DNA of 35,090 nt from an uncultured virus (IMG/VR IMGVR_UViG_3300046777_002950) (Duplodnaviria; Heunggongvirae; Uroviricota; Caudoviricetes), in IMG/VR virus record IMGVR_UViG_3300046777_002950; one strand, written 5' to 3'. The position numbers were made by a program, and so were the translations under genes. Under the pieces are notes generated by a model that saw nothing but the letters and a program-made list of their open reading frames with translations, was not told where the DNA came from and did not search any database. Within the stretch, counting starts at the first letter, position 1. Each line of letters starts with the position of its first letter. This document shows positions 4,639 to 35,090 of the stretch, piece after piece.

Positions 4639-5331
4639 TTAAACTCCTAAAATATTGTATTTTTCTCTGACAACTGAAACAGGCAAATCTAAATCATGCC
4701 ACCATTCCCAATCATCAACCAAAACAGCAGAATTTACACCTATGTTCCAATACTTCATAAGTTCATGAGACTTAATATCCTTGAATAAGTCGGATACAAA
4801 TATCTCTAACTGTTCAATTAAAAGTATAGGAAACTCTGTTTTTTGGATCATGCCGCTTTCGTAGGCTATTACAGCTAATTCACCCTTTTGAGATATGTCA
4901 ACATCTAATAAAATATGGTGCAAATCGTGAACTATGATGTAATTTGCAGGGAACAAAGAAGCGTCTGTGCTTGGTGTTTCCACTTGCTGTGTTAAATAGT
5001 ATTTTTTTAGTGCAGCACTCAAGCTACCCAGTACAGGACTTTTTAAATTTTTGTACAATAAATCAATTGCCTCTTTATTGGGATTTAACCCTGATCGCAA
5101 ATATGATTTAATACCATATTCTTTTTCATTTTCTGGCATACATGGTAATACTGAAGGCGCAGATTGAGAGCGTAAAGTACAAGTGGGACGCACATATTCA
5201 AATCTGATTCTACTAAATATTTCCCATCGCTTTAAAGGCGAAAATACTTCATCAGTTGATAAATCAATATTGATATTACCGGATGCTAACTGAGTAAAAG
5301 CTGCTTTATTTGTTAAGAATTGTTCAATCAT
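4639..5331 (-). CDS. Coq4-family-like zinc-binding protein inside the type IV-B operon
   Basis: HDLHH-x11-E matches the Coq4 HDxxH-x11-E motif; upstream LGSLSAALKKY resembles Coq4 GTLGxxY. Confidence 0.6.
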   Translation of the reverse strand: MIEQFLTNKAAFTQLASGNINIDLSTDEVFSPLKRWEIFSRIRFEYVRPTCTLRSQSAPSVLPCMPENEKEYGIKSYLRSGLNPNKEAIDLLYKNLKSPVLGSLSAALKKYYLTQQVETPSTDASLFPANYIIVHDLHHILLDVDISQKGELAVIAYESGMIQKTEFPILLIEQLEIFVSDLFKDIKSHELMKYWNIGVNSAVLVDDWEWWHDLDLPVSVVREKYNILGV

Positions 5332-6040
5332 AAATACCTTCGGATTGTAGTAGTGTAAACAATGGGAAATTATATCTTTTAATCAATTCCATTTTACCAT
5401 CAGACAACTGTTTATTTTTGTTAGCTGAAAACCAATATTTAGCGTGTGCATTTGTTCTACCATGCTCTCTATCTTTATAGTCATAGCTATTAAGATAGGG
5501 TAAATCATTAATAACTATATATGCCCAAACATCACGCCAATTCCACCACCCTAAAGGACATACTCTATAATGTCCAGCATATTTTCCAGTTTGATACTGA
5601 TGAATTAACCCATTATTCATCAGCGATCGCTTACGGTTTCTACTTTCTTCTGCTCGTAATCCTACAAATGCTAAAGTATACTCACCTTCAAGTATTTGAT
5701 TACATCTATCTTGAACCGTATCTGGTGTGTCCGCCCATTCCGGCAACCCTGTCAATTCTTTGTAATTTGTTGGGAATTTTTGCAAATAATTATTAATCAC
5801 TTCAGTGTAATTATCTACAACATCTTGTTCCGGTGATCCGTAATTTACTGCTATGATATTTGGTTGTATTTTTTGACATAAATGTAACATCACTAAACTG
5901 TCTTTACCCCAGCTAATAGCTACATAAGCAGGAGCAATTTTTAACGCTTCTTTAATGACTGCTTTGGCTTGTTCTACTTTTTTCTTGAATTTTGGCAAAG
6001 CTGCCCAGCCTTCAAACATTAATTTCTCATCAAGTTCCAT
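5324..6040 (-). CDS. cysH: Type IV-B associated CysH-like (PAPS reductase family, PP-loop) protein
   Basis: ISWGKDS, GLRAEESRNR, PLGWWNWRDVWAYI. Confidence 0.88.
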   Translation of the reverse strand: MELDEKLMFEGWAALPKFKKKVEQAKAVIKEALKIAPAYVAISWGKDSLVMLHLCQKIQPNIIAVNYGSPEQDVVDNYTEVINNYLQKFPTNYKELTGLPEWADTPDTVQDRCNQILEGEYTLAFVGLRAEESRNRKRSLMNNGLIHQYQTGKYAGHYRVCPLGWWNWRDVWAYIVINDLPYLNSYDYKDREHGRTNAHAKYWFSANKNKQLSDGKMELIKRYNFPLFTLLQSEGIYD

Positions 6041-21394: not shown

Positions 21395-21772
21395 ATGACT
21401 AATCGAAAAAAACCAGAAACAAGAGAACAATTGCAAGCTGATATTGCAGCACATCCCGATCGAGGCATGATTAATGGTCGCAAAGTTGTAGACGATGGTA
21501 AACGAGAAATACGCGCTAAAGTTCCCGCTGAACTCAAGCGAAAGTTTTTAAGAATAGTTTCTTGCTACGGCGTGGGCATGAGTGAAGGACTGGAAATGGC
21601 GATCGCATCCCTTTGGAGACAAGAACAGCAAGTAGTAAAGTTGCATGAACAAGAGAAAGCCCAAGAGTTTGGAGTGACTGAAAAAGAAATTCAAATCAAA
21701 GAATTTGGACACTACAAAGCAGTAGGCCGGCAAAAACGATTGAATTTAACTGGCGAGGGTGAAGATGAGTAA
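21395..21772 (+). CDS. Putative RHH-like DNA-binding protein
   Basis: EIRAKVPAELKRKF...MSEGLEMAI; start uncertain (21359 or 21395). Confidence 0.55.
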   Translation: MTNRKKPETREQLQADIAAHPDRGMINGRKVVDDGKREIRAKVPAELKRKFLRIVSCYGVGMSEGLEMAIASLWRQEQQVVKLHEQEKAQEFGVTEKEIQIKEFGHYKAVGRQKRLNLTGEGEDE

Positions 21773-22253
21773 AATTTTATTCTTAGATTTAGACGGTACA
21801 GTAAGACAAACCAAATCAGGAGCAACATTCATTAATGATCCCTATGATCAAGAATTAATACCTGGGGTAGGAGAAGCAGTTGCTCGGTATTTAAACTGGA
21901 CTATTGTAGGAGTAACCAACCAAGCAGGTGTAGAAGCGCACAAAAAGACCTTAGATAATTGCATCAAAGAACAAATGTACACAATGCAATTATTACCGCA
22001 GCTACAATGTATTAATTTCTGTACTACTTTTGACGGTAGCAATGGGTATAGATGTTATCCAGACGGAAATGTAGTTGCTTTGCAGCCAGGGCGCAACTAT
22101 CGTAAGCCTTCCCCAGGTATGCTTGTACAGTTTATTGAAGATTGCTGTTCATTGCCATTGGAAGATGCTTTAATGGTGGGAGACAGGGTAGAAGATGAGC
22201 AATGTGCTAAAAATGCTGGGATTAACTTTATTTGGGCTAATGATTGGAGGTAA
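21765..22253 (+). CDS. HAD-IIIA family phosphatase (polynucleotide 3'-phosphatase / GmhB-like)
   Basis: FLDLDGT, VTNQAG, RKPSPGM, MVGDR..D. Confidence 0.9.
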   Translation: MSKILFLDLDGTVRQTKSGATFINDPYDQELIPGVGEAVARYLNWTIVGVTNQAGVEAHKKTLDNCIKEQMYTMQLLPQLQCINFCTTFDGSNGYRCYPDGNVVALQPGRNYRKPSPGMLVQFIEDCCSLPLEDALMVGDRVEDEQCAKNAGINFIWANDWR

Positions 22254-24303: not shown

Positions 24304-24773
24304 TCAGCATAGAACAACTAGAAATTATTGCTCGTGAAAAATGCCCTAAAGCAGCAAAAATACTGGGAATTGAATTACAAAAAGTCCGGTATTACAAAAG
24401 AAGAATCAGAGAAGGTCATATTGACATAAAAACGCCTAAAAAAGAAAAGCGTAAACCCCACAAATGGACACCCAATGAAGATTCAATACTGATAAAAGAA
24501 ATCAGCAACAATTCAATTCAGCAAGCCGTTAACGTGCTACAAATACCCAAAGCAGAAATTGAAAAAAGATTTAATTTTATATTAAAAATAGAAAAAATTA
24601 AACTTCCTGTTTTGAGTATTTTAATCCAATTCCCAAATCTACTTCCTGGGCAAATTCAGCAAATGAAAAATATCTATGAATACAGTCCTCAAAGTGCGCT
24701 TAAATATTGTCAAGTAATTCAAAGCTACAATGATAAATATATATCAGATGAAGAGCAAGTTAATTGTTTTTGA
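24300..24773 (+). CDS. HTH / Myb-like DNA-binding protein
   Basis: AAKILGI...VRYY; KWTPNEDSIL. Confidence 0.6.
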   Translation: MISIEQLEIIAREKCPKAAKILGIELQKVRYYKRRIREGHIDIKTPKKEKRKPHKWTPNEDSILIKEISNNSIQQAVNVLQIPKAEIEKRFNFILKIEKIKLPVLSILIQFPNLLPGQIQQMKNIYEYSPQSALKYCQVIQSYNDKYISDEEQVNCF

Positions 24774-25359
24774 AGGGATAGAAGGCTGTGGAAAGACCAC
24801 TCAAATTCAGCTTTGCTATCAATGGCTGCAAAGCTTAAATATACCCGTAATCTTGACCCATGAACCAGGAGGCACGGAATTAGGGAAAGATATAAGAGAA
24901 CTATTGCTTAACAAATCACCGGATAAGATTACAGAACTTTTATTGTATGCTGCGGATAGAGCGCAACATACACAGGAGGTATTAAAACCCGCTTTAGCAA
25001 CGGGAAAACACATTCTATGCGATCGCTTTACCAATTCTACAATTGCATACCAGGGATATGGCAGGAAAATAGATATGGATTTAATCCACAAGCTTAATCA
25101 AATAGCCACTGGCGGTTTAAAACCCGACATAACTATCTGGATAGATGTAGATGTGGAAACAGGCCTGTTAAGAAAAGTCAACCAAAAACGCTTAGACAGG
25201 ATCGAGGAAGAAACAATAGACTTTCATAATCAAGTTAGACTTGGATACTCAGCAATGTATTTAAACCAAGCATCTTTAATTGTTCAAGTAGACGGAAATC
25301 AACAACAACTAGTTGTGCAAAAAAACATACAAAATATTTTGAGAAAATATTTCATTTAA
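24748..25359 (+). CDS. tmk: Thymidylate (dTMP) kinase
   Basis: IVFEGIEGCGKTTQ, EPGGT, LLYAADRAQH, CDRF..STIAYQGYGR. Confidence 0.95.
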   Translation: MKSKLIVFEGIEGCGKTTQIQLCYQWLQSLNIPVILTHEPGGTELGKDIRELLLNKSPDKITELLLYAADRAQHTQEVLKPALATGKHILCDRFTNSTIAYQGYGRKIDMDLIHKLNQIATGGLKPDITIWIDVDVETGLLRKVNQKRLDRIEEETIDFHNQVRLGYSAMYLNQASLIVQVDGNQQQLVVQKNIQNILRKYFI

Positions 25360-25368
25360 GGATTTTTC

Positions 25369-25968
25369 ATGATTAAAAACGACACCTGGATTACTGAAAT
25401 GTCTCAAAAAGGCATGATTTCACCTTTTCAACCCAGCTTAATTCGTCAAATACAGCCTGATTTATCGCAAATTCCCCAGCCTGTAATTAGTTACGGACTT
25501 TCTTCTTATGGCTACGATATCCGTCTTTCCCCATCTGAATTTCGGATTTTTCGCCACATACCTGGTACTGTCATTGATCCTAAAAACTTTAATCCCCAAA
25601 ACCTAGAATTTACCCGGTTGCATAAGGATACAAATGGCAAATATTTTATTTTACCCGCTCACTCTTACGGGCTGGGCGTTGCATCAGAAAAGCTACAAGT
25701 CCCAGAAAATATCACAGTCATCTGCATAGGCAAATCATCTTATGCAAGATGCGGTATAATAGCTAATTTAACTCCTGCTGAAGCGGGTTGGCGCGGACAT
25801 CTTACCTTAGAGTTTTCTAATTCTTCCAGTGCTGATTGTCGTATTTATGCCAATGAAGGTGTAGTACAATTACTGTTTTTGGAAGGTGAACCTTGTGCTG
25901 TTAACTATGAAACTCGTCAAGGAAAATATCAAGATCAGCCGGAAAGGATTACTTTAGCTAAAGTGTAG
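25369..25968 (+). CDS. dcd: dCTP deaminase
   Basis: ISYGLSSYGYDIRL, GKSSYARCGII, EAGWRGHLTLE, YANEG, GKYQ. Confidence 0.96.
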   Translation: MIKNDTWITEMSQKGMISPFQPSLIRQIQPDLSQIPQPVISYGLSSYGYDIRLSPSEFRIFRHIPGTVIDPKNFNPQNLEFTRLHKDTNGKYFILPAHSYGLGVASEKLQVPENITVICIGKSSYARCGIIANLTPAEAGWRGHLTLEFSNSSSADCRIYANEGVVQLLFLEGEPCAVNYETRQGKYQDQPERITLAKV

Positions 25969-27387: not shown

Positions 27388-27517
27388 AAACCAAAAAATT
27401 AAAGCCCTGATTTTCAAGGGTTTTGGGGTTTCCACAATCAAAAAAAATGGCGATCGCCTAACGGAAAAGGCGATCGCTTATATGAGTGTTTCGTAAGTAC
27501 TATACCATAGTATAGCA

Positions 27518-27943
27518 TTATGCGAGTAGTTGCTCAACTAATTCGTCACTTAAATATCTGTACCCTTGTGTGGGCGTGATGTTTAAATCACGCATTTTTG
27601 AAAGTGGAATTGGTGTAATTAGCTGAAGGTTTTCTACCTTGATTCCCCATCCAAAATATCCGCCTAAATATTCCTCTATTTCACTTACAGACAAGCATAA
27701 TTCGCTTGTAAATTCATGCCACTCGCTGCAAGTGTGTTCAAGTATCTCAGTGGGTGTGGTTAATCCTACAATTGCTGCTGTGGGCTTGGTTTCATATATT
27801 AGTATTTTACTGAAATTGGGCTTACTAAAATTGGGCTTATTTTTTCTGTGTTTAGGCGCTCTTTTCCTAAGCTCTATTGTTTTTTTACCTGTCAGAATAT
27901 TCTGGCAGTGGCGAGGGTGTAAGCTAATTAATAAGGTGTCCAT
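27518..27943 (-). CDS. ASCH-domain protein
   Basis: LLISLHPRHCQNILTGKKTIELRK, IYETKP..AIVG, PTQGYRYL. Confidence 0.88.
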   Translation of the reverse strand: MDTLLISLHPRHCQNILTGKKTIELRKRAPKHRKNKPNFSKPNFSKILIYETKPTAAIVGLTTPTEILEHTCSEWHEFTSELCLSVSEIEEYLGGYFGWGIKVENLQLITPIPLSKMRDLNITPTQGYRYLSDELVEQLLA

Positions 27944-28278: not shown

Positions 28279-28403
28279 GCGCTGTCACTCCAAATATAAA
28301 AATATCCCCAAGAAGGGGATTGTGAAAGCTATCTTAACTACAAGTAAGTAAATGCTTATACTTAGGTAATCGCGGATATCTCATGATCCGCAAAATTAAG
28401 AAA

Positions 28404-28700
28404 CTATTCCCACGGCTCCCAACCATAGGTGAACTCTGACACCCAGAGTCCTTTTAACTCATCAGTGTCTGGACCACCTACACCTAAAGCGTAGGTTTCT
28501 TCATTTTCAACAAGCCTTATGCTTGCCCCTGAAGGGATTGTTATCATGTGATTAGATCCTTGATTCCATTTATCAGATGGAATCTTTAGCTCTTGGGTGG
28601 CAACTTCTGGAAGCTGCCTATAGCTGTTTCTTATATAAAAAGCAGCTTTTTTATAGTTGCTTTTTAAATGCAAAAGAAGTTCTTGGGCTTGCGGTGTCAT
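28404..28700 (-). CDS. Hypothetical protein downstream of hammerhead 1
   Basis: AGGAGA RBS before ATG 28700 (MTPQAQ...). Confidence 0.7.
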   Translation of the reverse strand: MTPQAQELLLHLKSNYKKAAFYIRNSYRQLPEVATQELKIPSDKWNQGSNHMITIPSGASIRLVENEETYALGVGGPDTDELKGLWVSEFTYGWEPWE

Positions 28701-28734
28701 ATTATCTCCTGTGGGTGTAATGTAAATTTGGCTT

Positions 28735-28791
28735 CCCACTACTACCGGGGTGGTAGTTTCGTCCGGTAGCCAACCGGACTCATCAGGTGGG
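28735..28791 (-). ncRNA. Type I hammerhead ribozyme, copy 1
   Basis: CCCAC CUGAUGA GUCCGGU-UGGCU-ACCGGAC GAAA CUACC-ACCCC-GGUAG UA^GUGGG: complete core and three stems. Confidence 0.93.
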
Positions 28792-29151
28792 TTAATTAAT
28801 CCATAAATGGATAGGATTAGCCCACCTGCTACTTATTGCAGGAATCAGGCTTTCTATTTTGACCTGTTTTGAGCAGTTTTCGACTGCCTCAATCTTCAAG
28901 TGTTCAATTTTCCCTTTGTTAGCCAGTGCGGCTAATCGTTTGTGGAACAGTTCAGCATTTTTCTGGGAAAGAAAATGGAATGCGTGGTATTCCATATCCA
29001 CCTCCCCGTATTCATGGTCAAGCCAGAAATGGAAGTCTACCCTCCACACTGTTTCAGTGTAGACAGTCTTGTCAATAGGTTTAGCATTAACTCTGACTCT
29101 GGGTTTTAAAGTTTTATTTCTTATGTATTTAGGTCTTTCTAGCGCTCTCAT
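28792..29151 (-). CDS. Hypothetical protein flanked by two hammerheads
   Basis: GGAGA RBS; N-terminus paralogous to 29240-29473. Confidence 0.75.
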   Translation of the reverse strand: MRALERPKYIRNKTLKPRVRVNAKPIDKTVYTETVWRVDFHFWLDHEYGEVDMEYHAFHFLSQKNAELFHKRLAALANKGKIEHLKIEAVENCSKQVKIESLIPAISSRWANPIHLWIN

Positions 29152-29181
29152 GGTTGTCTCCCGTGGGTGTAATGTAGGCTT

Positions 29182-29238
29182 CCCACTACTACCAGGGTGG
29201 TAGTTTCGTCCGGTAGCCAGCCGGACTCATCAGGTGGG
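29182..29238 (-). ncRNA. Type I hammerhead ribozyme, copy 2
   Basis: CCCAC CUGAUGA GUCCGG-CUGGCUA-CCGGAC GAAA CUACC-ACCCU-GGUAG UA^GUGGG. Confidence 0.93.
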
Positions 29239-29239
29239 G

Positions 29240-29473
29240 TTAAAAGTGCTTAACGCCCCTTTTTCTTTTCATTTTTTCTACGGTGCTGTAGAAAAAATCT
29301 TTAGAATCAAAAACAGTGTTTTTGCTACGGGCAAAACCAGCAGCCTTAACAGGACAGTCAAATATGTGAACAGAGCAACAGCGTTCTTTATTGAAAACGT
29401 ACTCTACCTGCACCTTCCAGAATTTCTGTTCTGGGGTTTTACTCAAGTAATCTGGCCTTTGCAGCGCCTTCAT
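29240..29473 (-). CDS. Hypothetical protein
   Basis: AAGGAG RBS; MKALQRPDYL resembles MRALERPKYI. Confidence 0.7.
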   Translation of the reverse strand: MKALQRPDYLSKTPEQKFWKVQVEYVFNKERCCSVHIFDCPVKAAGFARSKNTVFDSKDFFYSTVEKMKRKRGVKHF

Positions 29474-29530
29474 GTTTGTCTCCTTTATTCTTTTTTGTAA
29501 GCCTTTTAACGACGTGCTTAGGTCGCAAAA

Positions 29531-29941
29531 TTAACCGTTTAGTGCTACTCTTTCCAAGTGCTTCTCTTGAGCAGACACAGGCTCGCCAGCCCATTGCTCA
29601 GAGGTAATTTCAATTTTTTTGATGCGGACTAATCCGCAATATTTAAAAACAGAATTGCCATTTTCCACTTCCCTTCTGGTTTGGGGGACTAACAAAGTAA
29701 CCCCTGTTCTAAGCCAGTCCATTTGCAATGGCAGTGGACAGACCGCTACTACAATTGACTCTGATTCAATTGTGTGTGTTATTTTTTCCCCGCCGTCTAG
29801 CAGGGTTTCGGTAAAAGAAACAAAATCTCCTTGTTTCTTTATACCGGATATAGTTCCGGTGTATTGGGTGGCAATTTCGCCACCCAAATGCTCTACCATT
29901 TTTTCGTCAGCAGTATGTCTGCTAAAAAAGTAAACTTTCAT
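29531..29941 (-). CDS. Hypothetical protein, weakly Csx16-like (FFSRH ... VAVCPLPL)
   Basis: AGGAG RBS before ATG 29941; first gene after the twin promoter. Confidence 0.6.
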   Translation of the reverse strand: MKVYFFSRHTADEKMVEHLGGEIATQYTGTISGIKKQGDFVSFTETLLDGGEKITHTIESESIVVAVCPLPLQMDWLRTGVTLLVPQTRREVENGNSVFKYCGLVRIKKIEITSEQWAGEPVSAQEKHLERVALNG

Positions 29942-29967
29942 GTCTCCTGCGGGGTAGTTGTTCTTTG

Positions 29968-30025
29968 ATATTTCTATAATATAGGATAAAGAAACAATTG
30001 TCAATACTGAAATAAAATAATTTTA
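29968..30025 (-). promoter_or_regulatory. Sigma70-type promoter, twin of 26043-26101
   Basis: TTTCAGTA TTGACA ATTGTTTCTTTATCCTA TATTAT AGAAATAT on the minus strand. Confidence 0.8.
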
Positions 30026-30065
30026 TTTTTGACAACTGTTTTTGTTGTGGGTGTAAATTTGGCTT

Positions 30066-30122
30066 CCCACTACTACCGGGGTGGTAGTTTCGTCCGGTAG
30101 CCAGCCGGACTCATCAGGTGGG
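30066..30122 (-). ncRNA. Type I hammerhead ribozyme, copy 3
   Basis: Same 57-nt fold; the stop codon of the upstream ORF is the first UGA of CUGAUGA. Confidence 0.93.
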
Positions 30123-31376
30123 ATTAAGCTGTTTGAGCCACTTTTCAAAAGACTTAATAGGCCTTTTAGAGGCTTCCTGAGCCTTTTTGTAAGCTTCATA
30201 ACCTTCCTTTCTCGCTCTTTTTTGAGCGAATTTTTTACTCGCTTCTGCTTGCAAGAAGCTTATCCGTGCCATGACAGCATCCCGGTCAGAACCGATGGAA
30301 ACTGAAGTCCTGACTCTATTGGATAGACCGCGTGTCCGGTCATCGCAATGCTCCCACACTGTGCCGTCTTCATCGTTCCAGTTGAACGAGACGACTATAT
30401 CGTCTCCAACCCAAAAACGATCAACGTTTCCGTTGCTAGTAATTTCTTTGCGAACCCATTCAGGTTCAGGTATTAGTTTTGATAATTTTTCCTGCTGTTC
30501 TTTTTCTAGAACCGCTTTTCTTGCTTCTCTTTTTGCACTTAACTCCCGTGCTTCCGCAAGTGTTTTTACTCCATTGTTCAGGAGTATATCTGCCAAATGA
30601 TCAATTTCCCTTCTCAAGATTTCGGCTTCAGAAGGGAATAATATTTTCCCTTCTATATTGGTATCTGACCAATATAGATACGTGCCAATGGTATATTCAT
30701 ATTCTGTCACCCATGTCTTGTGACTAACCGAATCTCCCATTCGGTTAGTAGAATGGCTTAATCCTTGAACAGTCCTTGTATTTCCTGTTGGAAATGCCGG
30801 AAGACCCTGGCATCCCAATGGAAAATTTAATTTGTTGTGATATTTTTTATCTTTGTCCTTGAAAGGGACAGAGATAAGTCCTGCCAACCCTAATTTAGCA
30901 GGGTTTTTTAAGTCTTCGAAAGTTAAGTTTAGCTGATGCAATTCATCAGCTATTGTAGTAGCTACTGTGTTTTTTGTAGTAACTTTTGTTTCTTTAATTA
31001 CTGGACTTGTTTTGTCTTCATCTTCATCCCAGGAAACACATTCATGTAACCTATCGCAATCGCTATCAATATCGCCATAGATGGCGACCTCTAATTGATA
31101 CCAATCCAGAAGGCTTGGATTGGTGTCTACTTCAATTAATCCAGAAGTGTTTACCCCGTTTAATTCATCTGCTAATTTTTTTTGAATCTCAGGGTGAAGT
31201 TCTGTAACGTTGATTTTAAACATTTTTGTCTCCTTTAACTGTACCTGTTTTGTCTGTTCCTCTAATTGAGAGTCAATTTTTATCAATTCATCTACCCAAC
31301 GGTAAATGTTTTGTTGTCCTCTCCCGACGCGGGAGATCAAGTTTATTAATACCTGTCTTCTGTTCACCAAGTCCAT
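30114..31376 (-). CDS. Hypothetical mosaic phage protein (possible internal start at 31223)
   Basis: 420 aa ORF; GGGAGG RBS; internal AAGGAG-ACAAAA-ATG. Confidence 0.7.
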   Translation of the reverse strand: MDLVNRRQVLINLISRVGRGQQNIYRWVDELIKIDSQLEEQTKQVQLKETKMFKINVTELHPEIQKKLADELNGVNTSGLIEVDTNPSLLDWYQLEVAIYGDIDSDCDRLHECVSWDEDEDKTSPVIKETKVTTKNTVATTIADELHQLNLTFEDLKNPAKLGLAGLISVPFKDKDKKYHNKLNFPLGCQGLPAFPTGNTRTVQGLSHSTNRMGDSVSHKTWVTEYEYTIGTYLYWSDTNIEGKILFPSEAEILRREIDHLADILLNNGVKTLAEARELSAKREARKAVLEKEQQEKLSKLIPEPEWVRKEITSNGNVDRFWVGDDIVVSFNWNDEDGTVWEHCDDRTRGLSNRVRTSVSIGSDRDAVMARISFLQAEASKKFAQKRARKEGYEAYKKAQEASKRPIKSFEKWLKQLNPT

Positions 31377-31443
31377 AGCACCCTCCCGCGTCGTTGTCGT
31401 TTGTTTTTCTATATTTCCATCATATATGGATAGAATTATTTTG

Positions 31444-31653
31444 TCAAGTCTTTTCCAAAACTTTTTTTTCGCTTTCCAGAAAAGCAGCCATACCCCGTGC
31501 TACGTCTGGGTTTCGGACGATTCTTTCAATTAGCTCACCAAAGGCTATACATAAATGGTCAGCATAGCACTGATATACACGCCTAGCTGTTGGGGTCAGT
31601 GTAAGCGTAACTTTTACCTTGTTTTTCCCATAGTCTGATGGTCTTCCCATGAT
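31444..31653 (-). CDS. RHH/CopG-like regulator
   Basis: MGRPSDYG..KVKVTLTLTPTA...GELIERIVR; start approximate (ORF track gives 31674). Confidence 0.6.
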   Translation of the reverse strand: MMGRPSDYGKNKVKVTLTLTPTARRVYQCYADHLCIAFGELIERIVRNPDVARGMAAFLESEKKVLEKT

Positions 31654-34382: not shown

Positions 34383-34520
34383 AGCCCTCGTACTGTGTTC
34401 AGCAGCCGAGGGACAGCCCCTACCATTTCTTAAATCTCTTAGGAGCAATTTAACTATGAATCATTTTTTGATTTTTGTCAACAAGACAAGTGTGCTGTTG
34501 CACGCCCATGGAGGTGTGTG

Positions 34521-35090
34521 ATGGGAAAATACTTGATAAAACATTATGGGCGATACATTTATCGCCATGAGGATTATCAAGCGATTTGTCAAGGTGATGA
34601 CTGCGCTGCACAAATTCTCAGTCTATTTGAGTTTTGGACTAGTTGCCGAATAGAAGAGATTCGGCGTGTACAAAGCTACAACGATCAGAACAAGAAAAAT
34701 ACTTCTCTTGTTCTGCAAGTACCAACGACGTGGTTGTATGAAACCACTGAAGATATAAGCATGGGCATATTAAATGCTTATGGCGACTCGTCCATAAGGA
34801 AGTCAATTAAAAAACTTCTTGACTGGGGGTTTCTTGATTCAAGAAGTTCCAAGAACGGTTTTGATAGAACCAAAGAATACAGATTTAACACTGATTTAAT
34901 TCAAACAGCATTAGATCAGTGGAACAATCAAAATGAAGTTGTAAAGGCCGAAAGTATTGATAAATCCGATCCGTTAGAAATAACGCAGGAGTCGTTAGAA
35001 ATAACGCAGGAGTCGTTAGAAATAACGCAGGAGTCGTTAGAAATAACGCAGGAGTCAGTGAATTTAAAGGATGATCTATATTCTTTAAAC
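34521..35090 (+). CDS. Phage replication initiator (wHTH Rep), 3'-partial (not in the ORF track)
   Basis: GGAGG RBS; MGKYLIKH...WLYETTEDI...IRKSIKKLLDWGFL...FDRTKEYRFN; open to the window end; internal iterons. Confidence 0.8.
   Translation, partial: MGKYLIKHYGRYIYRHEDYQAICQGDDCAAQILSLFEFWTSCRIEEIRRVQSYNDQNKKNTSLVLQVPTTWLYETTEDISMGILNAYGDSSIRKSIKKLLDWGFLDSRSSKNGFDRTKEYRFNTDLIQTALDQWNNQNEVVKAESIDKSDPLEITQESLEITQESLEITQESLEITQESVNLKDDLYSLN
34972..35055 (+). repeat. Four perfect 21-bp iterons inside rep (probable origin)
   Basis: CGTTAGAAATAACGCAGGAGT x4, each with a palindromic core CGTTA-gaaa-TAACG. Confidence 0.9.

Follow-up and report, generated by a model that had tools for sequence, protein, structure and literature searches.

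The window analysed here is a 35,090-nt stretch of DNA from an uncultured virus of the Caudoviricetes (IMG/VR record IMGVR_UViG_3300046777_002950). Its minus strand carries a row of open reading frames (ORFs) that is interrupted at three gene junctions by near-identical 57-nt elements, HH1, HH2 and HH3, which from their sequence we take with high confidence to be genuine hammerhead ribozymes. A first-pass annotation had placed three such elements on this strand, and reading the strand again confirmed their number, length and positions. From a divergent junction at ~32.4 kb, the row runs through two weak helix-turn-helix ORFs, a 76-aa ORF, a promoter-like site, a 420-aa ORF and HH1. A second promoter-like site follows, then a 136-aa ORF, a 77-aa ORF, HH2, a 119-aa ORF, HH3, a 98-aa ORF, a ProQ-C-like 105-aa ORF, an ASCH-like 141-aa ORF and a terminator-like hairpin (Table 1).

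Table 1. Ribozyme elements, associated motifs and ORFs of the minus-strand row, in window coordinates
Feature	Position	Strand	Remark
Promoter-like site TTGACA-17-TATGAT, 11/12	31419..31447	minus	upstream of 420-aa ORF
420-aa ORF	30114..31376	minus	homologues precede a hammerhead in related contigs
HH1, type I hammerhead	30066..30122	minus	predicted cut 30071/30070
AAGCC tail of HH1, partner of loop II GGCU	30061..30065	minus	from sequence and covariation
Second CCCAC (copy of stem I 5' strand) after HH1	30047..30051	minus	can pair with GUGGG
Promoter-like site TTGACA-17-TATTAT, 11/12	29976..30004	minus	between HH1 and 136-aa ORF
136-aa ORF, ATG at 29941	29531..29941	minus	first gene between HH1 and HH2
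77-aa ORF	29240..29473	minus	second gene between HH1 and HH2
HH2, type I hammerhead	29182..29238	minus	predicted cut 29187/29186
AAGCC tails of HH2 and HH3	29181-29177 and 28734-28730	minus	from sequence
Second CCCAC after HH2 and HH3	29167-29163 and 28715-28711	minus	both directly ahead of Shine-Dalgarno
119-aa ORF	28792..29151	minus	sole gene between HH2 and HH3
HH3, type I hammerhead	28735..28791	minus	predicted cut 28740/28739
98-aa ORF, ATG at 28700	28404..28700	minus	downstream of HH3
Terminator-like hairpin, 10 pairs then T run	27450..27477	minus	closes the row after the 105-aa and 141-aa ORFs

The three elements share one layout. Read 5' to 3', it consists of CCCAC (the 5' strand of stem I), the CUGAUGA core, stem-loop II (GUCCGG-(C/U)UGGCUA-CCGGAC), the GAAA core, stem-loop III (CUACC-ACCC(C/U)-GGUAG), UA, and GUGGG (the 3' strand of stem I), followed by an AAGCC tail. 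This order of elements, which has an open stem I and a cut site that follows GUA, is that of a type I hammerhead. With the core defined as C3 U4 G5 A6 N7 G8 A9, G12 A13 A14, an A15.1-U16.1 pair and H17 (not G), all three copies have it complete (CUGAUGA, GAA, the A15.1-U16.1 pair and GUA at the cut site), together with stems I-III, as the first-pass annotation had held. The copies are mutually identical at 55-56 of 57 positions and differ by 1-2 bases; in the alignment, a single loop III base separates HH2 from HH1 and a single loop II base separates HH3 from HH1, in agreement with the earlier remark that the differences fall in or beside loops. A 35-nt pattern, allowing up to three mismatches, occurs at three sites in the window and at none in 100 shuffles. 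The minimum-energy structure of each isolated 57-mer is the three-way junction with open stem I, with folding energies of -22.8, -23.2 and -25.1 kcal/mol (z -2.8, -2.7 and -3.4).

Relatives of these elements were gathered by pattern scans of viral contigs and genomes, followed by a parsing script, and 32 sequences were aligned. The nearest record is an IMG/VR contig (G001) that shares 54% of sampled words with the window, and the sole match among deposited phages is Aphanizomenon phage vB_AphaS-CL131 (hereafter CL131), in the ribozyme region only; with the phage genes found in the window, this match upholds the cyanophage setting proposed earlier. A genome-wide pattern scan returned 66 loci, most of them chance matches with an unpairable 'stem II'; the only true relatives in it were L170 and L195, and the cyanobacterial genomes in that scan gave no match. 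We also built a family covariance model from 32 sequences, the window copies and some relatives included. It gave three matches in the window, at 91.7-93.0 bits, scores that are high because these copies were in the model's building set; the other 24 matches listed reached at most 8.4 bits (E at least 0.65), and the model found no fourth copy in the window. Among the relatives, it found two copies in each of G001, G003 and CL131, five in G002 and seven in G004.

In the alignment, the core columns are invariant in 32/32 sequences, bar N7 (U or C) and H17 (A or C), and the stems co-vary. Stems I, II and III are paired in 98.1, 99.0 and 94.9% of cells, respectively, and stems I-III plus the pseudoknot described below in 96.6%, the stem percentages being inflated because the rows had been pre-selected for pairing. 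Compensatory changes occur in 12/17 pairs of the three stems and in 14/21 pairs when the pseudoknot is counted. None of 500 shuffles reached the observed pairing values, and sliding the 3' partners by 1-3 columns lowered pairing to 24-50% (maximum 49.7%). RNAalifold, run without a supplied structure, returned the same three stems, with compensatory change in 12/16 pairs. One stem II pair is U-A in 15 sequences, G-C in 11, A-U in 4 and C-G in 1; such variety of pair types at a single position is not explained by the way in which the rows were selected.

As a separate observation, 11 of the 32 relatives (L218:5751, L002, L005, L136, L137, L140, L143, L147, L148, L151 and L195) have an extra U between core A9 and the first pair of stem II, along with a rewritten stem II (GGACGG/CCGUCC type). 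None of the three window copies has this U.

The first-pass annotation had also pointed to a possible pseudoknot between loop II and the bases just 3' of stem I. Such contacts are a known feature of hammerheads, and the possibility is supported here by co-varying variants. The GGCU/AGCC helix is paired in 93.7% of cells of the alignment of 32, with compensatory change in 2/4 pairs. Six of the seven G004 copies combine CUGACUA with AAGUC (GACU/AGUC) and the seventh CUGGCUA with AAGCC, while the second CL131 copy has AUGGUAA with AAACCA (UGGU/ACCA pairing). From these variants we infer that the contact between loop II and the tail forms in the RNA. According to Perreault et al. (PMC3088659), such a pseudoknot occurs in ~40% of hammerheads, in all three types, and mutation showed it to be needed for fast cleavage.

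With respect to the genes, each element sits at a stop codon, as had been noted before. The 420-aa ORF stops at the first UGA of the HH1 CUGAUGA core (30116-30114), the 77-aa ORF at a UAA (29242-29240) one base ahead of HH2 stem I, and the 119-aa ORF at a UAA (28794-28792) that abuts HH3 stem I. HH2 and HH3 end ~30 nt upstream of the next start codon; the AUG lies 35-39 nt from the cut at these two sites (35 nt for the 119-aa ORF past HH2), with a Shine-Dalgarno sequence, GGGAGA or AGGAG, between the cut and the AUG. This placement recurs among the 112 unique type I hammerheads that the parsing script recovered from all the loci retrieved. In 84 of them, an ORF of 40 or more codons lies upstream and ends between -15 and +12 of the ribozyme start, and 89 have an ORF start downstream, at a median of 31 nt past the cut. 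Of the 84 upstream ORFs, 33 stop at offset -1 to +1 relative to stem I and 29 within the ribozyme itself (offsets +5 and +9). The window itself, with three copies within 1.4 kb on the coding strand, flanking a two-gene and a one-gene block, holds an array in the sense of Perreault et al. The description of the row as 'early', which the first-pass annotation had added, was not supported.

Beyond each pseudoknot tail there is a second copy of the 5' strand of stem I, 9-19 nt past the tail in the window copies and 6-19 nt past it when all seven G004 copies are included. When the downstream sequence was added to the fold, GUGGG shifted to the downstream CCCAC as the minimum-energy state in 3/3 copies, and the isolated 3' products formed a hairpin from their first base (-6.8, -8.1 and -6.5 kcal/mol). 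Across lineages, the 5' strand of stem I, its 3' strand and the downstream copy co-vary three ways. The G004 triplets are CCCAC/GUGGG/C(C)CAC (five copies), CUCGC/GCGAG/CUCGC and CCUGC/GCAGG/(U)CUGC; L139 has CCUC/GAGG/CCUC, and the same pattern is seen in L062, L011, L081 and the second CL131 copy.

The generality of this feature was assessed by a per-lineage identity test on 39 pseudoknot-type copies in 15 stem I groups. The downstream copy was found in 7/15 groups, and in 21/23 members of the CCCAC group, against control rates of 0-0.22; the CCCAT and CCCGC groups (three copies) scored 0 because their stem I holds a G-U pair, and both do carry CCCAC. The downstream copy is thus frequent, short of universal. 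An earlier version of the alternative-hairpin test, in which G-U pairs were allowed, gave 54/112 versus a control mean of 25.8 and was dropped as noisy and confounded by near-identical cyanophage copies.

Given the motif, its conservation, its covariation and its placement, all established by the sequence analysis, we consider it likely that the elements are working type I hammerheads, which would cut a polycistronic minus-strand RNA after GUA at gene junctions, giving short mRNAs with protected ends. Ribozyme-delimited mRNA processing had been proposed in the first-pass annotation, and the position of the elements on the coding strand at gene junctions favours it; the same explanation was put forward previously for such arrays (PMC3088659). 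We envisage that each hammerhead would be transcribed and folded, aided by the pseudoknot, ahead of the competing CCCAC, and would then cut after GUA. The upstream mRNA would keep its stop codon and end in the two ribozyme hairpins and a 2',3'-cyclic phosphate. The 5-bp stem I would dissociate, and the new 5' end, GUGGG, would pair with the downstream CCCAC, a refolding that would render the cut irreversible. The downstream mRNA would consequently begin with a 5'-OH hairpin immediately before the ribosome-binding site.

5'-terminal hairpins and 5'-OH ends slow 5'-end-dependent RNases. Cleavage in vivo followed by such refolding would presumably bring a gain in stability or insulation, the outcome being shorter mRNAs with uniform, protected ends regardless of the upstream sequence, as with the synthetic-biology element RiboJ. 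It is plausible, though somewhat less likely than not, that ribozyme, co-varying anti-stem and ribosome-binding site together constitute a natural portable insulator module, which would refold to cap the 5' end and would travel with accessory cassettes.

The same folding results could be read in terms of a conditional switch, in which cleavage would not be constitutive and ribosome traffic would set it, tuning relative expression: a ribosome finishing the upstream gene would block folding, and a ribosome loading downstream would free GUGGG. Such a switch would accord with the minimum-energy fold of the uncut RNA, which is the alternative hairpin in 3/3 copies, with the stops at the edge of stem I (33/84) or within the ribozyme (29/84), and with the CCCAC that abuts the Shine-Dalgarno sequence at HH2 and HH3. 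However, the ribozyme is transcribed ahead of the competing strand, the pseudoknot (unscored by the folding program) favours the active fold, and the tight spacing perhaps reflects just a compact genome. On the whole, we judge a switch to be quite unlikely.

Several observations weigh against working, mRNA-processing hammerheads at these sites. First, the Rfam scores are low. RF00163 (Hammerhead_1) matched HH1 with 21.9 bits (E 0.035, 2-kb search) and HH2 with 18.1 bits, the threshold being 34, while HH3, under permissive settings, was listed only by RAGATH-1-hammerhead (RF03152), at 19.9 bits versus a threshold of 56.3. Second, the rows of the alignment, the 112 parsed hammerheads and the copies in the per-lineage test came from pattern matching and from a script that accepted only sequences with pairing stems I-III, and some distant rows of the alignment were picked by eye for an AGCC-like tail. 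Third, L170, L195, L057, both L220 copies and the CGGGU lineage lack the downstream copy of the stem I strand, and the folding models could equally mean that the downstream CCCAC traps uncut RNA in an inactive fold, as a brake and not a cap. Fourth, with a promoter-like site just past it, HH1 is not required for the 5' end of the next mRNA. Finally, an RNA library (X2) contains a contig of 1,199 nt, with 90-95% similarity to the window, that continues unbroken through an HH3-like copy; this contig represents either uncut precursor RNA or DNA carry-over.

The Rfam comparison, which the first-pass annotation had named as a check, gave a divided answer. HH1 has a full-length RF00163 match, in which all 45 model positions are aligned end to end, but no copy reached the gathering threshold, and Rfam at gathering thresholds returned no match in the window. 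In the RF00163 alignment, stem-loop II has 11 inserted bases versus 6 in the model and stem-loop III 11 versus 2. Default-threshold Rfam annotation would therefore miss all three copies. One could take these sub-threshold scores, and the fact that stems II and III are G+C-rich hairpins, to mean that the elements are inert repeats or plain hairpin signals (terminators, protein-binding palindromes) resembling hammerheads; a core that stays invariant in 32/32 sequences while the stems change by compensation leaves that interpretation with hardly any credibility. A reading of the elements as terminators in particular was rejected, there being no T run after them and no entry at the three sites in the terminator scan.

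The RNA libraries offered little material. The 20 listed runs contain at most 0.10 of the sampled words. In the four libraries that were examined, contigs of relatives extend over no more than 28333-28792 in three runs and 29717-30017 in one, and at this scant coverage they showed neither junctions at cut sites nor end pile-ups. A single RNA-library contig runs into adapter at 28726, a point 13 nt into the predicted product, and nothing was drawn from it. Another, of 104 nt (X6, record 7), matches 28717-28755 exactly over 39 nt, a stretch that takes in part of stem III, the cut site and part of the spacer. Both of its ends repeat the same ~30 letters, as a cyclic 74-nt path would, and its flanks are unlike the window and carry no hammerhead core; it may be an assembly artefact.

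The headline of the first-pass annotation was that consecutive cuts release circularisable, protein-coding RNAs of 884 and 447 nt. The predicted cut positions and the two lengths are arithmetically correct, although the 884-nt product would arise only from read-through, because the promoter-like site at 30004-29976 sits inside that unit. By this proposal, the units would re-form stem I and be joined into translatable circles by the reverse reaction or a host ligase. The stem I strands are indeed identical in the three copies, which means that the 5' end released by one cut could base-pair with the 5' stem I strand of the following copy, and hammerhead ends (cyclic phosphate and 5'-OH) are substrates for ligases; eukaryotic retrozymes circularise in this way, as the parts of the two sources used here describe (PMC4918200, PMC7229834). 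Yet a stem I of just 5 pairs would need to assemble over a distance of 447-884 nt, and its rival, a local hairpin, is the minimum-energy fold of 3/3 copies and co-varies with stem I; by the folding model, this local 5-bp hairpin should out-compete re-pairing over such distances. In addition, the promoter-like site lies within the 884-nt unit, and Perreault et al., who had already considered circles in 2011, report that neither circular nor spliced products were detected from such arrays (PMC3088659).

In view of the competing, co-varying 5' hairpin and of that earlier negative search, the circular-mRNA claim is unsupported. We regard circular mRNA cassettes as highly improbable, and the closure of even a fraction of the 447- and 884-nt units into circles, whether by host ligase or reverse reaction, as extremely doubtful. 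If true, it would mean that exonuclease-proof, translatable circular mRNAs exist in a phage.

Comparison of the window with G001 showed 95-97% homology, broken at three places. One block present only in the window (28407-28792, 386 bp) is exactly HH3 plus its leader and the 98-aa ORF; the other (29157-29950) comprises the 136-aa ORF, the 77-aa ORF, HH2 and the HH2 leader. In turn, G001 has a 786-bp block of its own between its two ribozymes. HH1 and the promoter-like region that follows it move as one (93% to G001 5746-5918), and the promoter-like site at 30004-29976 is kept along with the ribozyme in both G001 and L006. Other contigs show further arrangements. L143 and L147 have a single ribozyme, between a homologue of the 420-aa ORF and a ProQ-like gene; L006 has two, the HH1-promoter module being joined straight to a homologue of the 77-aa ORF; and L003 carries an HH3-like copy plus a homologue of the 98-aa ORF behind a different gene. 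These comparisons show a hypervariable row made up of cassettes, each headed by a ribozyme, with 1 to 7 of them in a genome.

The idea that the repeats serve as recombination joints was borne out in part: the indels relative to G001 start or end at ribozyme modules, but the ribozyme DNA is not proven as the crossover site. In a stronger form of that idea, the ribozyme, tail and ribosome-binding site would be a portable linker, a ~95-nt joint for swapping accessory genes by homologous recombination, and cleavage would be secondary or would make any newcomer gene expressible. Ribozyme modules border both window-only blocks as well as the G001-only block, L003, L006, L143 and L147 offer additional gene-ribozyme combinations, and the window copies are nearly identical despite their unrelated flanking genes. 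Against this, mosaic joints in phages are usual at gene borders, with or without a ribozyme, each indel has one border away from the ribozymes, and the copies inside G001, G002 and G004 have not been homogenised. We think it unlikely that linking is mainly what the elements are for, and we retain mRNA processing as the preferred explanation.

The proteins encoded in the row say little about its function. Searches with PHROGs, Pfam and PADLOC gave no match for the 420-, 136-, 77-, 119- and 98-aa ORFs; an Atlas search linked the 136-aa ORF only weakly to the MJ1673 family (score 0.85) and gave no lead for the 119-aa ORF. The 77- and 119-aa proteins are alike only over their first 10 residues, M(R/K)AL(E/Q)RP(K/D)Y(I/L) (29473-29444 and 29151-29122, minus strand), and post-hammerhead genes in related contigs (the ORFs downstream of L004:1847 and L136:1532) likewise start with ..KALE(RP). 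The ASCH-like 141-aa ORF (27518-27943, minus) matches the PADLOC candidate-defence models PDC-M11B with E 1.9e-14. The strong terminator-like hairpin that closes the row (27450-27477, minus) is made up of two GCGATCGC octamers, a palindrome that we take to be highly iterated in cyanobacterial genomes.

Elsewhere, the window encodes Rha-, Bro- and Ant-type regulators, an N6/N4 DNA methylase, a thymidylate kinase, a dCTP deaminase and a DnaD-like ORF, and no tRNA genes were found in it. A HAD-type phosphatase (21759-22250, plus strand) has polynucleotide kinase 3'-phosphatase (PNK3P) as its best Pfam match (E 1e-8); judging from that similarity, the enzyme could act on RNA 3' ends of the ribozyme type. 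At one window edge (14-1606, plus) lies a 530-aa IS605 OrfB/TnpB-like protein (OrfB_IS605, E 3.5e-21; Cas12f1-like TNB domain, E 1.5e-16). At the other, the DnaD-like ORF (34518-35090, plus) runs off the window and contains four tandem LEITQES copies near the window end. The thymidylate kinase and dCTP deaminase genes are adjacent (24730-25965, plus), and a PAPS-reductase-domain protein is encoded amid ORFs without assigned function (5324-6040, minus); either the pair or the latter protein may hint at nucleotide or DNA modification.

Hammerheads have been met in phage surroundings before. In Desulfovibrio vulgaris, three hammerheads near phage-like genes were found active in cells by end capture. 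A 2019 review, in the portion drawn on here, calls the role of thousands of phage and bacterial hammerheads open (PMC6765202). For cyanophages, titles and abstracts yielded no literature on the topic. The CL131 genome paper contains no mention of ribozyme or hammerhead, and the CL131 GenBank record (MG209611) has no ribozyme annotated over either site in the stretches examined. In that record, a 24-aa 'hypothetical protein', gp130 (98349-98423), overlies the second hammerhead (98357-98442) and is probably a spurious ORF call over the ribozyme. With its two copies (105147-105233 and 98357-98442), CL131 would be a culturable model for the role of these hammerheads.

The arrangement in the window is of a known kind, met here in a phage group whose hammerheads had not been pointed out. 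Perreault et al. described clustered prophage hammerheads, in Clostridium scindens, Azorhizobium caulinodans and Agrobacterium tumefaciens, that flank single genes or short blocks of variable, mostly uncharacterised genes; they proposed that long phage transcripts are processed into operon- or gene-length mRNAs, considered circles, and showed three arrays to be cleaved in vitro and one in E. coli cells (PMC3088659). As in those arrays, hammerheads lie here on the coding strand around phage genes, and the predicted pseudoknot would provide a tertiary contact between stem I and stem II. The differences are that the hosts are filamentous cyanobacteria and that every copy belongs to type I, its stem II being 6 bp long and its loop CUGGCUA; moreover, the passages of PMC3088659 consulted do not describe a co-varying downstream copy of the stem I strand. 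Compared with Rfam RF00163, the core and topology are the same and stem-loops II and III are longer. Knowledge of hammerheads as such is unchanged, and the interest lies in the co-varying post-cleavage hairpin and in the pattern of cassettes, a comparative picture of one hypervariable row in which ribozyme-headed units vary from 1 to 7 per genome.

Two further systems bear comparison. Like retrozymes and viroid-like circular RNAs, the units of the row are bounded by repeated hammerheads with identical stem I and would have ligatable ends. Those RNAs, however, use type I or III hammerheads and are non-coding or retroelement RNAs in eukaryotes or RNA replicons, whereas the units here are phage protein genes in a DNA genome and face a competing local hairpin. 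The closer parallel is RiboJ, a hammerhead plus a 23-nt hairpin placed before the ribosome-binding site, which normalises the 5' untranslated region, according to the part of PMC7536230 drawn on here. As with RiboJ, the predicted cut would strip off the upstream sequence and leave a fixed leader with a hairpin by the ribosome-binding site; unlike RiboJ, the arrangement is natural, and its hairpin would be built by refolding of the ribozyme's own stem I 3' strand. The concrete mechanism offered by the row is a post-cut 5' hairpin beside the ribosome-binding site, which would be a natural counterpart of RiboJ.

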